NCBI GenBank assembly: GCA_016699995.1
Contig: CP064996.1
Location: 202,357-266,356 of the forward strand
From: a bacterium
GTDB taxonomy: Bacteria; Patescibacteriota; Doudnabacteria; UBA920
Direction of reading: 5' to 3'
Length of the DNA stretch: 64,000 nt
Shown: piece by piece, positions 3,290-15,312 of the stretch
How the letters are laid out: every line of letters begins with the position of its first letter
Numbering within the stretch: the stretch's first letter is position 1
The notes under the pieces: generated by a model
Databases searched by the model: none
What the model was told of the DNA's origin: nothing
Seen by the model: the letters and a program-made list of their open reading frames with translations, nothing else
Translations under genes and position numbers: made by a program

Positions 3290-4735
3290 ATGGCAGAAAA
3301 TCATTCTAAATTTTATATTACGACCGCGATAGATTACATCAACGGCAAGCCTCACATTGGCCACTCATACGAGAAAGTCGCCAGTGATGTTTTAGCGCGT
3401 TATCATCGCGCAAAAGGCGACAACGTCCGTTTTTTAACCGGCACTGATGAACACGGCGCGAAGATTTCAGAATACGCAAAAGATTCCGGATTAGGACTGC
3501 AAGATTTCGCAGACAAAACTGCAGCAGGTTTTAAACTGGCTTGGGATAATCTGAATTTGTCTTACGACCGCTTTATACGCACTACCGACAGCGATCATAT
3601 TAAAATTGTGGAGGAGTTGGTCGCTAAAATTCGCGATAATGGCTATTTGTATGAGGGGGACTACGAAGGTTTGTATTGTGTTGGGCACGAAGCATTTTTG
3701 ACAGAAAAGGATTTAGTCGACGGCGTGTGCCCCGATCATAAAACCAGGCCCGAACTTATTAAAGAAAAAAACTGGTTCTTCAAACTGGCAGAAGGAGTCA
3801 ATGGTCAGCCGCCGCTTACAGAAACCATCAAGCAGAAAATTGAATCGAACGAGTTTTTAATCTACCCGGAACATTCGCGCAAAGAAATTTTGTCGATGTT
3901 AGACGAAGGTTTTCGAGATATTGCCGTAACGCGCCCTAACGTGAAATGGGGGATTCCGGTACCTTGGGATACAGAGCAAACTATTTATGTCTGGGTTGAT
4001 GCATTAATCAACTACTATACTGGCGCCAAAGCAGAGAATGAGGATTTTTGGCCGGCGGATGTTCATATGGTTGGACCAGATATTGCTAAATTCCATTGCA
4101 TTATCTGGCCGGCATTGCTTTTGGCAGCGGGTTTGGCTTTGCCAAAAGCAGTTGCTGTTCATGGTTTCTTGACCCTGAACAATCAAAAGCTGTCTAAGAC
4201 TACTGGCAATATCGTTGACCCAAATGATTGGGTGGCAAAGTATGGTGCAGATTCGGTAAGATACTTTTTAATGCGCGAAGTGCCGTTCGATAGTCATGGG
4301 GATGTAAGCGAAGAAAAACTTCGCGCTCGCTATGAAGGCGACCTGGCTAACGGTTTGGGAAACTTGGTAAGCAGAATTACGAATTTGATCGAAAAGAATT
4401 TAGGCGGAAAAGTTAATCGCGAATTGGCTGAGCAGCATAACTTGCATACTGAGGATATCAACAAAGATATAGAGCAATTTAAGTTCCACGATGCTCTGGC
4501 AAAAGTTTGGCAAAACGTAGCGTTAGCTAACAAAATTGTTGATGAGCAGAAGCTGTGGGAATTGGCAAAAACAGATTTGGAGAGCTTCGAAAAGTACTGT
4601 GCTTCGGTCCTTAATATTATAGAGAGAACGGCAAGCGATTTAGTGCCATTTGTTCCAGAAACAGCTCAAAAAATTCTCGATGCTGTTACTGCAAATGAAA
4701 TTACTAAAGTAGAGCCTTTGTTTCCAAGGGTTTAG
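3290..4735 (+). CDS. metG: Methionyl-tRNA synthetase, short form
   Basis: Class I HIGH-like motif (KPHIGHSYE), KMSKS variant KLSKTTGN, and conserved MetRS core blocks. Confidence 0.9.
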   Translation: MAENHSKFYITTAIDYINGKPHIGHSYEKVASDVLARYHRAKGDNVRFLTGTDEHGAKISEYAKDSGLGLQDFADKTAAGFKLAWDNLNLSYDRFIRTTDSDHIKIVEELVAKIRDNGYLYEGDYEGLYCVGHEAFLTEKDLVDGVCPDHKTRPELIKEKNWFFKLAEGVNGQPPLTETIKQKIESNEFLIYPEHSRKEILSMLDEGFRDIAVTRPNVKWGIPVPWDTEQTIYVWVDALINYYTGAKAENEDFWPADVHMVGPDIAKFHCIIWPALLLAAGLALPKAVAVHGFLTLNNQKLSKTTGNIVDPNDWVAKYGADSVRYFLMREVPFDSHGDVSEEKLRARYEGDLANGLGNLVSRITNLIEKNLGGKVNRELAEQHNLHTEDINKDIEQFKFHDALAKVWQNVALANKIVDEQKLWELAKTDLESFEKYCASVLNIIERTASDLVPFVPETAQKILDAVTANEITKVEPLFPRV

Positions 4736-4780: not shown

Positions 4781-5647
4781 ATGAAATTTATCGACACTCA
4801 TACCCACATAAATTTGCGGGCTTTCGCAGAAGATGCTGCGGAGGCTGTTCAGCGCGCCCACGAAGCTGGAGTAGCTATTGTAAATGTTGGTACGCAAATT
4901 GATACCAGTCGCCAGGCTGTAGATATGCTTAAGCAATTTCCAGAAAATGTTTATGCTGTTATCGGTCTTCATCCGTCACACGCTTATGATCATGGATTCG
5001 AAGACGAGCAGGAGGTGGCTGATAAGACTCGAGAAGAATTTTTTGATGCCAAACTGTATAAACAATTAGTAGAAGGCGCCGGCGCAAATGCCAGTCGGAT
5101 TATAGGAATCGGGGAGTGCGGCTTGGATTATTATCGCTTGCCCGAGGACGGAGATATTAATCAAATTAAACTGCAGCAGCTAGCTGCATTTACCGAACAG
5201 ATCAATTTGGCCCTCGATTTAAATAAAGCGCTTTGTGTTCATTGCCGCCCATCCGATGGCACCGATGATGCCTACGAAGATATGCTGAAAGTTTTAACGA
5301 AGTTTAAGACTGAAAACCCCAACCTCCGATTCGAAATTCACTGTTTTACTGGCAGTCTCGAAACAGCAAAAAAGTTTGCCGATCTTGGCGGATACATCGG
5401 CATTAACGGCATTATCACTTTCGATAAGACCGGCCGCAGTGAAGAGGTGGTCAAAGGCCTGCCCTTGGAGGCTATGATTTTAGAAACCGATGCGCCATAC
5501 TTAACTCCTAAATCTAACCGTGGCAAGCGCAATGAGTCTAGCTATTTGCCAGAAGTTGCGGAAAAAATTGCCGAGTGGAAGAGCGTAACAGTAGATGAAG
5601 TTGCAGCTGCTACCACCGCCAACGCAAAAAAATTATTTAACCTGTAA
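4781..5647 (+). CDS. tatD: TatD-family metal-dependent hydrolase/DNase
   Basis: 288 aa; begins MKFIDTHTHIN with conserved His/Glu/Asp positions of the TatD TIM barrel. Confidence 0.85.
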   Translation: MKFIDTHTHINLRAFAEDAAEAVQRAHEAGVAIVNVGTQIDTSRQAVDMLKQFPENVYAVIGLHPSHAYDHGFEDEQEVADKTREEFFDAKLYKQLVEGAGANASRIIGIGECGLDYYRLPEDGDINQIKLQQLAAFTEQINLALDLNKALCVHCRPSDGTDDAYEDMLKVLTKFKTENPNLRFEIHCFTGSLETAKKFADLGGYIGINGIITFDKTGRSEEVVKGLPLEAMILETDAPYLTPKSNRGKRNESSYLPEVAEKIAEWKSVTVDEVAAATTANAKKLFNL

Positions 5648-5661
5648 GCGGGCTGTCTAAA

Positions 5662-6441
5662 ATGAACGAACGCGACTTTGCCAAAATAAATTTTAACGAA
5701 ACCTCTCATCCCCCGGATGGCAGTTTTGAATATCCACTCATTGATAGCAATATGAGCCGGCAAGAGATTGAAGACTTTATTTTAGAATCGTATCCTGAGG
5801 CAAAAGAAGTCTTAGAGCGGCAGGAGATTTTAGATGTCAGATATCTAAATAAAGAAGGCAAGTTTTGCCAAGGGCAGATTGTTGTAGACAGAGAATTAGC
5901 TGCGGAAGTAGAGGATTTCTTTAAATTTTTATTAGATATACAATTTGGGATAGACAAAGTCGTTCCCATTCAGGACAAAAAATATTCCGGCGATGATGAA
6001 ACCTCGATGCAGGACAACAATAGCTCGGCCATGAATTATCGTTTTATTGCTGGCACAGAAAGATTGTCACTGCATTCATTTGGCTTCGCGATTGATATTA
6101 ATCCTTGGGACAATCCTGTGATAAAGAATGGGGAGATATTGGCTCCGATCGGCGGGGTTATGCCGAATTTGGATGACCCTCAAACTTTAACTGCAGAGCA
6201 TCCGGTGGTAAAATGGTTAGAAGAACATGGCTGGGAGTGGGGAGGCAGATGGGGGAATGATCGTTACGAAGATAATCATCACTTTCAAAAGCCGCTGGCT
6301 ACAGAACAATATTTGCAGGAATTAGAGAAGCAGCTGCAAGACGGAAAAATTTCCCAAGAAGATTTTGATGGTAGAGTTGGGGTAGCTAAAGCTAATTTAG
6401 ATTTAATTCAAAAGCATGAACAACGAACAGATACAGAATAA
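5662..6441 (+). CDS. Peptidase M15 family (VanY/D,D-carboxypeptidase-like) cell-wall hydrolase
   Basis: 259 aa; SxHxxGxAxD-type motif (LSLHSFGFAIDINPWDN) and a downstream His pair. Confidence 0.6.
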   Translation: MNERDFAKINFNETSHPPDGSFEYPLIDSNMSRQEIEDFILESYPEAKEVLERQEILDVRYLNKEGKFCQGQIVVDRELAAEVEDFFKFLLDIQFGIDKVVPIQDKKYSGDDETSMQDNNSSAMNYRFIAGTERLSLHSFGFAIDINPWDNPVIKNGEILAPIGGVMPNLDDPQTLTAEHPVVKWLEEHGWEWGGRWGNDRYEDNHHFQKPLATEQYLQELEKQLQDGKISQEDFDGRVGVAKANLDLIQKHEQRTDTE

Positions 6442-6470: not shown

Positions 6471-6604
6471 GGGGAGAGGGGGAGGGGGGGGGGGGGGGGG
6501 GGGGGCGCCCCGGGGGAGTAAAAAAAACTAAAATAAAAAAATGGGGTGGGGGGGGTGGTGTGTATGTTAAAAAGAGAAAATTGTTGTGGGGGGTTCTTTT
6601 CCCC
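6471..6604. repeat. G-rich low-complexity tract with poly-G runs, including a roughly (G)26 run
   Basis: Directly visible: ggggagagggggag(g)n cgccccggggg ... tggggtggggggggtgg ... tgtggggggttcttttcccc, in the intergenic region between the M15 gene and leuS. Confidence 0.8.
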
Positions 6605-6666
6605 AATGGGTTCTAAAATCTGTTTACCGGTAATTAAAAGAAAATGGTTAGAAAACTATTACAAAA

Positions 6667-9513
6667 ATGAAAAAGTATAATCCACAGACAATTGAAAAGA
6701 AGTGGCAGGAATATTGGGCAACTAATAATACTTTTGCTGCGACCGAAAACTCCGACAAAGAAAAGAGGTATGTTTTAGTGGAGTTCCCATATCCCTCTGG
6801 AGACGGTTTGCACATGGGGCATTTGCGAAGCTATACAGCCGCAGATGTTTTGGCTCGCTGTTACAGAATGCAGGGCAAAGAAGTTATGTATCCAATAGGT
6901 TGGGATGCTTTTGGCTTGCCTGCAGAAAATTATGCCATAAAACATGGCGTGCAGCCGGCGATTACTACAGCAAAAAATATTGAAAACATTAAAAAGCAAT
7001 GCCAACGCCTCGGTTATAGCTTCGACTGGAACCGCGAAGTAAATACTACCGACCCGGAATACTATAAATGGACACAATGGCTGTTCTTAAAGTTTTTCGA
7101 GGCTGGTTTGGCATACGAAGCAACCGGTTTAATTAACTGGTGCCCGAAAGATAAAACCGGATTGGCCAACGAGGAAGTAGTGAATGGCCATTGCGAACGC
7201 TGCGGCACGCTTGTTGAAAAGAAAGAGCTGCGCCAGTGGTATTTAAAAATTACTGAATACGCCGACAAATTATTGCAAGGCTTAGAAACATTGCCCGAGT
7301 GGCCAGAGGCTGTGAAACTGCAGCAGGCTAATTGGATAGGGAAGTCTGAGGGTGCAGAAATCGATTTTGCGATTCAGGGCACAGACCAATCAATTAAAGT
7401 CTTTACGACTCGCCCCGACACCATATTCGGTGCTACATATTTAGTATTGGCCCCGGAGCACGAATTGCTCTCAGTTTTGCTTGAAGAAGAAGACAAGAAA
7501 CTGGAAAATTTTGCAGAGGTGGCTGGTTATGTTCAGCAGGCCAAATCAAAAACAGAGATCGACCGCAGTGCCGAAGGGAAAGAAAAGACCGGCGTTGAGT
7601 TAAAAGGTGTAAAGGCAATCAACCCGGCTACGAATGAGCAAATTCCAATTTTTGTTGCAGATTACGTGTTGGGAGGTTATGGCACAGGCGCTATTATGGC
7701 TGTTCCGGCTCACGACAGCCGCGATTTTGAATTTGCAAAAAAATATAATATCCCTATTGTGCAGGTCGTTGCGCCTAAAGTCATTGACACAGTAAATCCT
7801 CCTGTCGAGGGCGAGGAATATACAGCCCGTAAATTGGTTCATGTGATTGTTAAGCATCCGACTGAGGAAAAATTTATCTCTTTAAAATGGAAAGAGCATA
7901 AGTGGAATACTTTTGTGACCGGCGGCGTAGAGGATGGCGAAGATTTAATAGAAGCTGCAAAGCGGGAAGCACTAGAGGAAACGGGCTATAAAAACATGAC
8001 TTTTGTGGCACAAATGCCTTACATAGTCAGGGCAGAATTTTTTGCCAAGCATAAAAATGTAAACCGCCGCGCTGATGCCTATGTGGTTATACTTAAATTA
8101 GATGATTTGGACCAAGATCAAGTTGTCAAAGAGGAGCAGGATCTATTTGAACCGGAATGGTGGGATATGAAAGATATGAAGCATCTATCACCGGTTTCAG
8201 AATTGGAATACATCTTAAACTGGCTGGAAAATGGCGATGGGCCTTACACAGGCGAAGGTGTATTAATAAACTCCGGCGAGTTTACTGGGCTGAATTCTAC
8301 AGAGGCCCTGGAGAAAATGGCCGCAAAATACGGTATACCTAAAACTACTTACAAGCTGCGCGATTGGGTCTTCAGTCGCCAGCGCTATTGGGGCGAGCCA
8401 ATTCCTATTGTGCACTGCGAGACAGACGGGGTGGTGGCAGTTCCTTACGACCAGCTTCCAGTTGTGTTGCCTGAGGTTAAACAGTATGAACCAACTGGTA
8501 CCGGAGAGTCGCCTTTGGCTGCGATAGATGATTGGGTCAACACCGCGTGTCCGAAATGCGGAGGCGAAGCAAAACGAGAAGCTAATACCATGCCGCAATG
8601 GGCTGGCAGCAGCTGGTACTATTTGCGCTATGCAGACGCGCGCAATAATAATGAGTTTGCTGCTCCTGATAAACTAAAGTATTGGCTTCCTGTCGATACA
8701 TATTTTGGCGGCATGGAACATACTACGCTGCATCTTTTGTATTCCCGCTTTTGGAATATCTTTCTGCACGATCAAGGCTTAGTCCCGGTCAGCGAGCCTT
8801 ACACTAAACGCGTGCCGCACGGCATGGTTTTGGCCGCCGACGGCAGCAAGATGAGCAAGAGCAAAGGCAATGTAATTAATCCAGACGAAATCGTAAAGAA
8901 GTACGGGGCAGATACTGCGCGAATGTACGAGCTGTTTTTGGGACCGCATGAGGCAAGCGTCTCTTGGAGCGATCAGGGTATTACTGGAGTGGCCCGTTTC
9001 TTGGATCGTGTATGGTACTGGGTTAACAATATTACTCCGTCAGAAAGCAATAGTGAAATTGCAGACAGGGAAATCAATATTCTCATTAAGAAGATCACCG
9101 AAGACATTGCTGCTTGTGGGTATAACACTGCGATTTCTAACTTCATGAAATTTCACAATGAAGTCAAAGATGAAGCTATCACTAAACAATCTATGGTTGA
9201 TTTTATAAGGCTGCTTTATCCATTTGCTCCTCATATCTCCGAAGAAATTTTCGAGCTGCTCGGTGGAGAGGGAAGCGTGCAGCACCAGCCATGGCCTCAA
9301 TTTGATGAAGGCAAAATAGCAACAGCGACGGTTAAGATAGTAGTGCAGGTGAATGGTAAGGTAAGAGATACTCTAGAAGTTGCGGTGGGAGGTAGTCAAG
9401 AAGAAGTTTTAGCTCGCGCTATTCAATCGGAAAAGGTTAGCACGGCTATGGCCGGGAAACAGTCGACCAGGGTAATATTCGTAAAAGATAAGCTGATCAA
9501 TATAGTGTTATAA
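6667..9513 (+). CDS. leuS: Leucyl-tRNA synthetase carrying an inserted Nudix-hydrolase domain
   Basis: 948 aa; HMGH and KMSKS motifs, CP1 editing-domain blocks (AHDSRDFEFAKKY), and RDWxxSRQRYWG. About 120 extra residues after the editing domain contain GGVEDGEDLIEAAKREALEETGY, which matches GX5EX7REUXEEXGU. Confidence 0.95.
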   Translation: MKKYNPQTIEKKWQEYWATNNTFAATENSDKEKRYVLVEFPYPSGDGLHMGHLRSYTAADVLARCYRMQGKEVMYPIGWDAFGLPAENYAIKHGVQPAITTAKNIENIKKQCQRLGYSFDWNREVNTTDPEYYKWTQWLFLKFFEAGLAYEATGLINWCPKDKTGLANEEVVNGHCERCGTLVEKKELRQWYLKITEYADKLLQGLETLPEWPEAVKLQQANWIGKSEGAEIDFAIQGTDQSIKVFTTRPDTIFGATYLVLAPEHELLSVLLEEEDKKLENFAEVAGYVQQAKSKTEIDRSAEGKEKTGVELKGVKAINPATNEQIPIFVADYVLGGYGTGAIMAVPAHDSRDFEFAKKYNIPIVQVVAPKVIDTVNPPVEGEEYTARKLVHVIVKHPTEEKFISLKWKEHKWNTFVTGGVEDGEDLIEAAKREALEETGYKNMTFVAQMPYIVRAEFFAKHKNVNRRADAYVVILKLDDLDQDQVVKEEQDLFEPEWWDMKDMKHLSPVSELEYILNWLENGDGPYTGEGVLINSGEFTGLNSTEALEKMAAKYGIPKTTYKLRDWVFSRQRYWGEPIPIVHCETDGVVAVPYDQLPVVLPEVKQYEPTGTGESPLAAIDDWVNTACPKCGGEAKREANTMPQWAGSSWYYLRYADARNNNEFAAPDKLKYWLPVDTYFGGMEHTTLHLLYSRFWNIFLHDQGLVPVSEPYTKRVPHGMVLAADGSKMSKSKGNVINPDEIVKKYGADTARMYELFLGPHEASVSWSDQGITGVARFLDRVWYWVNNITPSESNSEIADREINILIKKITEDIAACGYNTAISNFMKFHNEVKDEAITKQSMVDFIRLLYPFAPHISEEIFELLGGEGSVQHQPWPQFDEGKIATATVKIVVQVNGKVRDTLEVAVGGSQEEVLARAIQSEKVSTAMAGKQSTRVIFVKDKLINIVL

Positions 9514-9536: not shown

Positions 9537-9929
9537 ATGAAAGGTTACATTCAAAACATAGAAAAATTATCCTTAGAAAATACAGATTTTCGACGGGTTT
9601 TGTATACAGCAAAGCATAGCCAGCTGGTTTTGATGTGCATTCAGCCTGGAGATGAAATTGGCCAGGAGACTCACCATTTGGATCAGTTTATCCGCATCGA
9701 AGCCGGAAATGGGAAAGCTATTTTGGATGATGTAGAGACAGCGCTAGAAGACGGTTTTGCTGTGGTGATTCCAGCCGGCACCAAGCATAACATAATTAAC
9801 ACCGGTTTAGAGCCGCTCAAGCTTTACACTGTTTATTCTCCGCCGGAACATAAGGATCAGGTTGTGCGTGCCACCAAGGCGGACGCAATGGCTAACGAAG
9901 AGCACTTTGACGGTCAGACTACAGAATAA
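9537..9929 (+). CDS. Cupin-domain protein
   Basis: 130 aa; double-stranded beta-helix pattern with His-containing motifs (THHLDQFIRIEAGNG ... PAGTKHNIIN). Confidence 0.55.
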   Translation: MKGYIQNIEKLSLENTDFRRVLYTAKHSQLVLMCIQPGDEIGQETHHLDQFIRIEAGNGKAILDDVETALEDGFAVVIPAGTKHNIINTGLEPLKLYTVYSPPEHKDQVVRATKADAMANEEHFDGQTTE

Positions 9930-9958: not shown

Positions 9959-11113
9959 ATGCACTCACATTTTCACCTACACCTACCGCACTATTTTGCC
10001 TCTAAGGTACGCAAGGAAGTAGAGCATCTTTATGCTTCCACAGCAGTGGGCAACTTGGCTCAAGCAATCATAGCATTGTTTGAACCGATTTTTTTGTATG
10101 TGGTGTTGGGATTGAGCATAACAGAAGTTCTGTTGTTTGCGGCCGTGGTTTACGGGCTTTACATCGTACTGATACCTTTTGGAGCAAAGATTGCTGCTAG
10201 ATTCGGCTATGCCCATTCAATCTTGCTTAGTATTCCATTCCAGATTCTGCTGTGGATGTCCCTCATAGGTTCGCAATATTATTTTGAATTGATATATATC
10301 GCACCAGTTTTATTTGCGCTACAAAAAATATTTTTCTGGCCGGCTTGGCATGCAACACTCGCTCGGTTTGCCCATGGAAAACAGGTTGCGCGCGAATTTA
10401 GCGCAATGTACGCAATCATGAATCTTGTGCAAATTATGGGCCCAATGATCGGTGGCTTTTTGACAATGTTTTTTGGGGTGAACTCGGTGTTTCTTATTGG
10501 TTCGCTAATCTACGCATGCTCTGCCATTCCTTTGCTTCTATCAAAGGAAATTTTTGTCCCTAAGCCGTACCGCTATCGCGATACATGGGAATTGGTCAAA
10601 AAATACCCCGTTAGGTTTGCAGGGTACCTCGGTTTTGGAGAAGAGTTGCTGGTCATGATTATATGGCCGATATTTATTTACATGATCGTCAAGGATTATC
10701 AGAATTTGGGTTCGTTGGTAACCATCGCAAGCTTGGCTGCCACCGGACTGGCTCTGCTTATCGGTATTTATTCCGATAAATACGGTAAGAAAAAAATTCT
10801 GCAGATTGGAGGATTCTTCTATGTGCTTTCCTGGTTAGCACGTATTCCTGTGATTAGTCCTTTCGGAGTATTTATCACAGATGCCATTTCTAGGACCGCC
10901 AAGAGTTTGGTATTTATTCCTGTCACAGCTATGACGTATGAGCGTGCCGAAACTACTCACATCATGCCCTATGTCGTGGGAATGGAGCAGCTTTTATGTG
11001 TTGGAAAATTTTTAGCTGCGGTGATGGGTATTGTTGTTTTCGCTGCAACCGGCAGCTTTATTGCGCTATTTATTTTGGCGGCCGTCTTTAGTTTATTCTA
11101 TTTTTTGATATAA
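9959..11113 (+). CDS. MFS-type membrane transporter (about 12 TM)
   Basis: 384 aa, polytopic; MFS-like loop motif PFGAKIAARFGY between TM2 and TM3. Confidence 0.5.
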   Translation: MHSHFHLHLPHYFASKVRKEVEHLYASTAVGNLAQAIIALFEPIFLYVVLGLSITEVLLFAAVVYGLYIVLIPFGAKIAARFGYAHSILLSIPFQILLWMSLIGSQYYFELIYIAPVLFALQKIFFWPAWHATLARFAHGKQVAREFSAMYAIMNLVQIMGPMIGGFLTMFFGVNSVFLIGSLIYACSAIPLLLSKEIFVPKPYRYRDTWELVKKYPVRFAGYLGFGEELLVMIIWPIFIYMIVKDYQNLGSLVTIASLAATGLALLIGIYSDKYGKKKILQIGGFFYVLSWLARIPVISPFGVFITDAISRTAKSLVFIPVTAMTYERAETTHIMPYVVGMEQLLCVGKFLAAVMGIVVFAATGSFIALFILAAVFSLFYFLI

Positions 11114-13974: not shown

Positions 13975-14059
13975 GGCCGAGTGGCGGAACTGGCAGACGC
14001 GCACGACTCAAAATCGTGTATCTTCGGGTGTGAGGGTTCGACTCCCTCCTCGGCCACCA
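13975..14059 (+). tRNA. tRNA-Leu (anticodon CAA), class II with long variable arm, CCA encoded
   Basis: Acceptor stem GGCCGAG/CTCGGCC; anticodon stem CACGA/TCGTG with loop CTCAAAA (U33, CAA); long variable arm; T-arm GAGGG-TTCGACT-CCCTC; 3' ACCA. Confidence 0.85.
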
Positions 14060-15238: not shown

Positions 15239-15312
15239 CGGGCTGTAGTATACCGGTAGTACGCGCCCATGGGGTGGGTGTAGACCGAGTTCGATTCTCG
15301 GCAGCCCGACCA
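15239..15312 (+). tRNA. tRNA-Pro (anticodon GGG), CCA encoded
   Basis: Acceptor CGGGCTG/CAGCCCG; D-stem GTAT/GTAC; anticodon stem CGCCC/GGGTG with loop ATGGGGT (U33, GGG, G37); T-arm CCGAG-TTCGATT-CTCGG; discriminator A plus CCA. Confidence 0.7.

Follow-up and report, generated by a model that had tools for sequence, protein, structure and literature searches.

The leuS locus and the position of the Nudix insert

A 64,000-nucleotide window from a Doudnabacteria genome (Patescibacteriota, UBA920; assembly GCA_016699995.1, contig CP064996.1, positions 202,357 to 266,356 of the forward strand) carries a leucyl-tRNA synthetase (LeuRS) gene, leuS, within which a Nudix hydrolase domain is nested. 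A reading of the window made from its letters alone (the sequence-only reading) had proposed that leuS is a single uninterrupted open reading frame (ORF) of 948 residues and that the Nudix domain is fused into it in frame, and both proposals are borne out: the ORF has no frame shift or stop, and its product is identical to NCBI protein QQS23134.1 (P0001), recorded on a 943-kb contig of a metagenome-assembled genome. The gene and its parts are listed here in window coordinates, with amino acid (aa) numbers of the window LeuRS.

6667..9513, + strand: leuS, 948-aa leucyl-tRNA synthetase with a nested Nudix domain (ORF; TIGR00396; exact database match P0001)
6811..6822, + strand: HMGH (HIGH) signature of the synthetic site, aa 49-52; H49, G51, and H52 invariant in 46 homologues
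7330..7773, + strand: CP1 editing domain, N-terminal part, aa 222-369 (PF13603)
7405-7422, + strand: TTRPDT, the Thr-rich motif of CP1, aa 247-252 (motif location; invariant)
7708-7725, + strand: AHDSRD of CP1, with D350 and D353 (motif location; invariant)
7774..8241, + strand: Nudix cassette, aa 370-525, in place of Thermus LeuRS loop 364-375 (12 residues)
7921..7989, + strand: Nudix box GGVEDGEDLIEAAKREALEETGY, aa 419-441, with predicted catalytic E434, E437, and E438 (motif location, conservation)
8035..8067, + strand: family-specific motif EFFAKHKNVNR, aa 457-467 (conservation in 227 modules)
8242..8349, + strand: CP1, C-terminal part, aa 526-561, PYTGEGVLINSGEF onward, helix and return strand (aligns from Thermus 376)
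8350..9510, + strand: second half of the catalytic domain from YKLRDWVFSRQRYWG, anticodon-binding and C-terminal domains; leucine-specific domain lacking
8848-8862, + strand: KMSKS, aa 728-732

The bacterial leuS equivalog model TIGR00396 matches the protein in two stretches at 1019 bits, against a cutoff of 548. Pfam matches are to the class I catalytic domain, the editing domain (PF13603), the anticodon-binding domain, and NUDIX (PF00293). The NUDIX match covers aa 410-507 with 48.7 bits (E 1e-12; gathering cutoff 21.1) and rises to 51.9 bits when the insert is scored in isolation. As the sequence-only reading had claimed, the Nudix box lies at nt 7921-7989 and fits GX5EX7REUXEEXGU without mismatch, and it has no counterpart in the ordinary LeuRS of Thermus thermophilus (1h3n; alignment E 2e-234). 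In that alignment residues 1-369 correspond to Thermus 1-363 and residues 526-737 to Thermus 376-593, and aa 370-525 (nt 7774-8241) stand in place of 12 Thermus residues. The protein gains ∼144 aa net, somewhat more than the 120 to 125 that had been estimated. The location also differs from the one first given, which was past CP1 and ahead of the catalytic core. PF13603 (213 bits) matches aa 222-374 with positions 2-146 of its 185 and resumes in a second stretch, so that the insert splits the model at about position 146, whereas in the insert-free relative P0057 it runs unbroken across the same point and reaches position 182. Because of this difference the insert is placed, by sequence comparison, inside the CP1 editing domain, in a surface loop. 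The G+C content of the cassette is slightly lower than that of the remaining gene (41.7% and 46.0%).

The window encodes a complete, functional-looking bacterial LeuRS. H49, G51, and H52 of the HIGH motif and K728 to K731 of KMSKS are invariant in 46 full-length Nudix-bearing LeuRS proteins, as are T247, T248, R249, D251, and T252 of CP1 and the editing-pocket residues D350 and D353. With the editing motifs invariant, the idea that the Nudix domain compensates for lost canonical editing is rejected. The leucine-specific domain of the Thermus enzyme (∼594-635) has no counterpart in the window LeuRS, where it would fall at aa ∼727-737 (nt 8848-8900 region). Relatives from the candidate phyla radiation (CPR, or Patescibacteria) likewise lack it, and their C-terminal lengths are equal with and without a Nudix domain, ruling out a link between the Nudix domain and this absence. 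The leucine-specific domain is present in most, not all, bacterial LeuRS proteins. It is also missing from the Mycoplasma mobile LeuRS (PMC3643597).

Fold and conservation of the Nudix module

The structure check proposed with the sequence-only reading gives a confident model: predicted alone with AlphaFold2, the insert is a folded domain (pLDDT 95.7, pTM 0.89) with the alpha/beta/alpha Nudix fold. The full-length model scores lower overall (pLDDT 87.4, pTM 0.75), with the Nudix domain and both junctions at pLDDT ∼89-95, which speaks for a nested domain held rigidly and against a floppy tether.

Conservation was computed over 227 homologous Nudix modules, in the numbering of the window LeuRS. 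Within the box, G419 (99%), G420 (98%), E434 (99%), E437 (96%), E438 (100%), and G440 (99%) are nearly invariant, and outside it R388 (96%), K463 (98%), N466 (96%), R467 (90%), and W498 (97%) are similarly retained. Positions 458 and 459, which lie 17 and 18 positions past the box, are aromatic (F/Y) in 93-94% of modules; at +17, F and Y together make up 94%, and at +18, Y makes up 51% and F 42%. The window protein has F458 and F459. These residues contribute to a family motif, (F/Y)(Y/F)AxHKxxNR, and an N-terminal V-x-P...R segment is also characteristic. Mean identity among the modules is only 38%, with a lowest value of ∼30%, and such high residue conservation in spite of it points to purifying selection on the catalytic site. 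A few members have degenerate boxes, as in P0025 with Gly for E434, and Gln replaces E425 in 11% of modules. The conserved E434, E437, and E438 (96-100%) argue for Mg/Mn-dependent pyrophosphohydrolase activity, and we consider it highly probable that the nested architecture is real and the module catalytically competent.

Distribution among LeuRS proteins and other synthetases

The sequence-only reading had called for a survey of CPR leuS orthologues, and the same insert is present in many independent assemblies. Of the 120 LeuRS proteins closest to the window protein, 57 hold the Nudix family at the same site, and the segment from AVPAHDxRD to YKLRDW spans ∼200-224 aa in those with the insert versus 29-91 aa in those without. 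An exhaustive profile search with the module, against 1.84 billion cluster representatives (50% identity clusters), returned 173 clusters at E<=1e-30, a number that rises to 541 at E<=1e-10, and LeuRS proteins or fragments of them make up 115 of the best 150. Of the 55 best loci from GTDB species representatives, the box is enclosed by both LeuRS flank motifs, at the insert length, in 40, and a further 9 show one flank only, their contigs being cut. These loci belong to Saccharibacteria, Moranbacteria, Taylorbacteria, Paceibacteria, Peribacteria, Adlerbacteria, and Nomurabacteria, and a LeuRS of nested-Nudix design is shared by hundreds of related genomes. The assemblies come from independent sources (NCBI, JGI, ENA, and Logan), some on contigs of 0.6-0.9 Mb, and an assembly chimera is ruled out as the origin of the architecture by their number and independence. 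We also note that at one Candidatus Taylorbacteria locus (L009, ∼4001-4507) the stop-free frame holding a Nudix-bearing LeuRS extends to 1735 codons, beyond any LeuRS seen here; this could be a fusion to a neighbouring gene or a mere upstream open frame.

The module is not confined to one place. In the coordinates of the insert-free LeuRS P0019, modules occur at five or more sites (∼209, ∼240, ∼370, ∼460, and ∼505), of which site ∼370, that of the window, accounts for 158 of the 227, and modules at the other sites are up to 60% identical to those at site 370. Twelve clusters carry two or three modules (e.g., P0107, P0121, P0122, and P0271), with two or three NUDIX stretches found by Pfam. These multi-Nudix proteins (P0107, P0121, P0122, P0123, and P0271) include tandem pairs right before the CP1 linker, and P0271, at 1430 aa, has three modules in tandem.

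Members of the family also lie outside LeuRS. P0259 is an archaeal-type prolyl-tRNA synthetase (ProRS) with a module between its anticodon-binding and C-terminal domains, and four further ProRS proteins with a module (P0273 to P0276) form a small clade among ProRS sequences labelled Nanoarchaeota or Woesearchaeota. Free-standing members, proteins of 154-200 aa, are 40-58% identical to embedded modules. The gene for one of these (P0137, labelled a MutT-type enzyme by JGI) stops 2 nt before a leuS gene of 951 aa that is itself Nudix bearing; a second (P0216) lies between argS and ileS, with dUTPase, thymidylate kinase/dNK, and another Nudix gene nearby; a third (P0190) is directly downstream of an fpg/nei glycosylase gene and near ruvA and polA; and another adjoins a second Nudix gene. 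Among the best 150 clusters, all matches lie in aminoacyl-tRNA synthetases (aaRS), except for those that are stand-alone, double-Nudix, or too short to place. No second copy of the family is present among the 329 six-frame ORFs of the window. The Nudix family is specific to ultra-small prokaryotes (CPR/Patescibacteria and DPANN).

Exchange of the cassette within leuS

On a neighbour-joining tree built from the 120 LeuRS cores (746 columns, inserts removed), no fewer than 16 state changes are needed to account for the presence of a Nudix module at site 370, although this tree and the identity statistics are approximate. The clearest case is a pair of LeuRS proteins, P0010 (958 aa, with Nudix) and P0062 (798 aa, without), whose cores are 98.1% identical and whose loci are 96.7-97.6% identical in DNA across 8 kb with equal gene order. 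They differ by a sharp-edged block, 597 nt (the Nudix domain and the last CP1 helix) in one and 57 nt in the other, and the swapped block includes the segment corresponding to aa 526-561, the C-terminal part of CP1. Because the 57 nt are unrelated to the 597 nt, this is a replacement rather than a simple deletion. The closest relative of the window LeuRS, P0003, is 86.5% identical to it in the core, and its Nudix domain is only ∼31% identical; across aa 366-527 outside the Nudix box identity is ∼17-35%, with an abrupt fall and rise at the cassette borders. For P0003, unusually fast divergence of the cassette may be an alternative to exchange. Over 1596 pairs, core and Nudix identities are uncorrelated (Spearman -0.03).

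No meaningful direct or inverted repeats were found at the junctions of the window cassette. An intein or mobile element is ruled out, as Nudix is the sole Pfam match in the insert and flanking repeats are absent, and the full-length model places the module with confidence within the mature LeuRS. The most economical explanation of these comparisons is that the module is gained, lost, or replaced by homologous recombination through the conserved LeuRS flanks, and it behaves as an exchangeable and apparently dispensable accessory cassette.

Other enzymes in the same loops

In other CPR LeuRS proteins, the loop that holds the window Nudix is occupied by other domains: P0113 has a serine hydrolase there, P0119 a HAD phosphatase, P0103 a methyltransferase, and P0072 a Nudix of another type. 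A second CP1 loop, from GAEIxF to FTTRPDT, often contains a serine hydrolase, whether or not there is a Nudix domain at site 370. Extra enzyme domains in the two CP1 loops were seen in P0015, P0054, P0057, P0095, P0103, P0113, P0114, P0117, and P0119, with Ser_hydrolase/alpha-beta hydrolase matches in the GAEIxF-FTTRPDT loop and Ser_hydrolase, HAD_2, or Methyltransf_23 matches at the Nudix loop; some LeuRS proteins of 1120-1140 aa combine a hydrolase with a Nudix domain. These occurrences support a view of the CP1 loops as docking sites for accessory enzymes. A related arrangement is seen in a CPR isoleucyl-tRNA synthetase (IleRS) of at least 1184 aa (L085, 5094-8498), which has a match to His_Phos_1 (histidine phosphatase) between its catalytic halves, and whose gene adjoins argS, a stand-alone Nudix of the family described here, dUTPase, and a thymidylate kinase/dNK-type gene.

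A possible role in dinucleoside polyphosphate turnover

The module could be an independent accessory enzyme tethered to the synthetase, outside amino acid proofreading, that hydrolyses a nucleotide-polyphosphate compound tied to synthetase chemistry. Synthetases form diadenosine tetraphosphate (Ap4A) from enzyme-bound aminoacyl-adenylate and ATP. Attack of ATP on the bound adenylate yields dinucleoside polyphosphates such as Ap4A and Ap3A, and Nudix cleavage of these would give ATP or ADP plus AMP. We favor dinucleoside polyphosphates as the likeliest substrate class because synthetases make Ap4A and this Nudix family associates with synthetases. The sequence-only reading had also named Ap4A, and that part of its idea is still the most plausible guess at a substrate. 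The nearest characterised neighbours act on substrates of polyphosphate type. The best profile match to a protein of solved structure is to the lupin Ap4A hydrolase (E 3e-8). The closest structure is 2azw, at 16-17% identity, and the fold neighbours after it are RppH, DIPP1, the Thermus Ap6A hydrolase Ndx1, and the Mycobacterium tuberculosis ApnA hydrolase Rv2985, followed by the Ap4A hydrolases 1jkn, 4ilq, 3i7u, and 1kt9 (including those of Chlamydia, Aquifex, and Caenorhabditis elegans). Dunn et al. are said to have proposed in 1999 that a Tyr ∼16-18 residues downstream of the Nudix box marks ApnA hydrolases; in the present family +17 and +18 are mostly F or Y, and in the window module both are Phe. 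ADP-ribose pyrophosphatases have a Pro ∼16 residues downstream of the box; this mark is absent from the window module, where position +16 is E457, and the NudE, NudF, and YffH models score far below cutoff.

Several observations weigh against this proposal. Characterised Nudix enzymes are all matched weakly (12-23% identity, 24-37 bits), mostly across the box, and the NCBIfam models for RppH, NudI, YtkD, NudE, and other subfamilies score well short of their cutoffs. Signals for placing the module in any one Nudix subfamily were weak and mixed throughout, whether from NCBIfam equivalogs, from sequence profiles of PDB entries, or from either of two fold searches. The function of 2AZW itself is listed as undetermined (PMC5389931). 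The stand-alone relatives beside fpg/nei or near dUTPase/dNK genes favor a MutT-like housekeeping role, and the unrelated enzymes that share the loop weaken any explanation of this exact spot that depends on Nudix chemistry; the site may simply be a permissive one. Finally, Ap4A is soluble and diffuses, and tethering brings no obvious kinetic gain. On balance, an ApnA-type substrate (Ap4A/Ap3A) is possible on the sequence and fold matches, if doubtful, and the explanation taken as a whole, with a competent nested Nudix, an exchangeable cassette, and an ApnA-type role, is one that we hold tentatively and short of even confidence.

The alternative that survives best is that the module is a hitch-hiking MutT-like or broad housekeeping pyrophosphatase, carried in a permissive loop of an essential, constitutive gene of a reduced genome and uncoupled from leucylation. 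The positions of P0190 (downstream of fpg/nei, near ruvA and polA) and P0216 (near dUTPase, thymidylate kinase/dNK, and another Nudix) are consistent with this, as are the MutT-type label of P0137, the dispensability of the module indicated by P0010 and P0062, and the tolerance of synthetase loops for other enzymes, with Ser-hydrolase, HAD, and methyltransferase domains at LeuRS sites A and B and a His-phosphatase in a CPR IleRS. However, permissiveness alone hardly explains five or more LeuRS sites, multiple copies, and a class II ProRS in another domain of life. The matches among the best 150 clusters that can be placed, and that are neither stand-alone nor double-Nudix, are all in aaRS (LeuRS, and ProRS once), and the stand-alone copy P0137 abuts leuS. 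A housekeeping role of this kind is a genuine possibility, although we doubt that it is the answer.

An RppH-like activity, in which the module would act as an RNA 5'-end pyrophosphohydrolase or decapping enzyme on 5'-triphosphate or Np4N-capped RNA, possibly LeuRS-bound tRNA, is unlikely. RppH is among the fold neighbours, but the RppH equivalogs (NCBIfam PRK00714) give 26-30 bits against cutoffs of 116-118, identity to RppH is 12-15%, and the 5' end of a mature tRNA is normally a monophosphate made by RNase P.

A quite different view takes the variable loops of CPR LeuRS (and DPANN ProRS) as a recombination-swapped accessory locus, an arms-race or immunity system inside a drug target rather than a housekeeping fusion. 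The cassettes (Nudix subtypes, serine hydrolase, HAD, and methyltransferase) would be strain-specific, target-tethered enzymes that destroy or modify small molecules acting on the synthetase, for example inhibitors that mimic adenylates, alarmones, or nucleotides derived from hosts or competitors. We regard this view as rather improbable.

The sequence-only reading had itself suggested that the Nudix module could clear (mis)activated adenylates in cis as a form of proofreading, which would be pre-transfer proofreading and for which the physical fusion to the editing domain and the recurrent association with aaRS could be cited. This idea fares poorly. Aminoacyl-adenylates are acyl-phosphate anhydrides without the diphosphate linkage that Nudix enzymes cut, and the canonical editing site is intact and invariant in the 46 Nudix-bearing LeuRS proteins. 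Near-identical LeuRS genes occur with and without the module (98% identical cores), and unrelated, non-Nudix enzyme domains fill the same loop in other lineages. In ProRS, moreover, the module sits where the anticodon-binding domain meets the C-terminal domain, a site that is not part of the class II catalytic core. Cis proofreading of adenylates is the least supported of the substrate ideas discussed here, and very unlikely.

That the insert is a noncatalytic structural or tRNA-binding element, as the degenerate boxes (Gly at E434 in P0025; Gln at E425 in 11%) might suggest, or an assembly chimera, can be dismissed as most improbable, given catalytic residues conserved at 96-100% over 227 modules down to ∼30% identity, the agreement of NCBI, JGI, ENA, and Logan assemblies, the lack of any frame shift or stop, and the confidently modelled junctions.

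Relation to known systems

The window LeuRS shares the HIGH, KMSKS, and ZN1 regions with canonical bacterial LeuRS proteins (the 1h3n/2v0c and 4aq7 family), and its CP1 Thr-rich motif and conserved Asp have the same numbering as in the E. coli enzyme. It departs from them in having a 156-residue Nudix cassette in place of a 12-residue CP1 loop and in lacking the leucine-specific domain. With the ApnA hydrolases and RppH (1f3y/1jkn, 3i7u, CT771, Ndx1, and E. coli RppH) its best characterised neighbours in sequence and structure, the module shares the Nudix fold and box, and its aromatic residues 17-18 positions past the box may be a further resemblance. Those enzymes are free-standing, however, whereas the window Nudix is nested, 12-23% identical to them, and marked by its own motif, (F/Y)(Y/F)AxHKxxNR. 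The Enterococcus faecalis MutT/Nudix protein of 2AZW (16-17% identity) is likewise a stand-alone protein.

Other adenylyl-transferring enzymes offer a parallel. Class I aaRS have catalytic domains that are placed in the HIGH nucleotidyltransferase superfamily. In NMNAT-Nudix (NadM-Nudix), a HIGH-superfamily adenylyltransferase is fused to a Nudix domain able to hydrolyse the adenylylated product (PMC7824862). By analogy, this may be a precedent for the same logic in a synthetase-Nudix protein, although NMNAT-Nudix is an end-to-end fusion in NAD metabolism and the window Nudix occupies an internal loop of an editing domain. Synthetases with extra modules (CP1, the INS/YbaK module of ProRS, and AlaX) similarly have enzyme domains added in cis, and NCBIfam NF040702, [quoted passage not shown] is another such aaRS. 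The known editing modules are aminoacyl-tRNA deacylases, unlike a Nudix pyrophosphatase.

The sequence-only reading had remarked that the architecture seemed undescribed, and we found no paper describing a LeuRS-Nudix or aaRS-Nudix architecture in the full-text literature searched; a comprehensive review of the Nudix clan does not mention tRNA or synthetases. The architecture is undescribed rather than unseen, since precomputed Pfam annotations of public proteins show it. Current labels such as "leucine--tRNA ligase" and "class I tRNA ligase family protein" hide the second enzyme.

Domain accretion by synthetases is a textbook phenomenon, mostly documented in eukaryotes. The present case is prokaryotic, from organisms with some of the smallest known genomes, and the LeuRS houses inside its editing domain a second predicted catalytic domain to which it is unrelated. 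The features of interest extend beyond this one gene to the several sites and copies, the ProRS of DPANN archaea, and the exchange of cassettes within an essential gene. One Nudix family has entered synthetases repeatedly, at several positions and copy numbers and in bacteria and archaea alike, which indicates that selection has linked aminoacylation chemistry to the hydrolysis of nucleotide polyphosphates, Ap4A turnover being one example. To our knowledge, such a link has so far been known only in trans, as the LysRS/Ap4A/NUDT2 axis. Near-identical genes with and without the cassette, together with core-similar genes whose cassettes are divergent, provide a natural experiment on the role of the module, and the two CP1 loops are marked as tolerant domain-insertion sites for protein engineering.

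Surroundings of leuS in the window

The genes flanking leuS in the window are as follows.

3290-4735: class I aaRS-like ORF (assigned from position)
4781-5647: TatD
5662-6441: M15 peptidase gene, before leuS
9537-9929: cupin gene, after leuS
9959-11113: MFS transporter

The order class I aaRS-like ORF, TatD, leuS, and MFS transporter is common to the window and two related loci (L087 and L089), relative to which the M15 peptidase and cupin genes are additional in the window. A CYTH gene is present between the aaRS-like ORF and TatD in L087 and L089 and was not identified at that position in the window.

Upstream of leuS lies a 225-nt spacer with a run of ∼30 G residues (6471-6506) and two further G-rich tracts at ∼6542-6562 and ∼6587-6595, with GC skew of up to 0.53 over 6471-6606. 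No credible Rfam match to a riboswitch or T-box was found in this leader, which could be a long-read homopolymer artefact, a phase-variable tract, or a G-quadruplex-forming leader. Downstream of leuS by ∼4.5-6 kb are genes for tRNA-Leu(CAA) (13975-14059) and tRNA-Pro(GGG) (15239-15312); that these match the two synthetases carrying the Nudix family, LeuRS and ProRS, is probably a coincidence.

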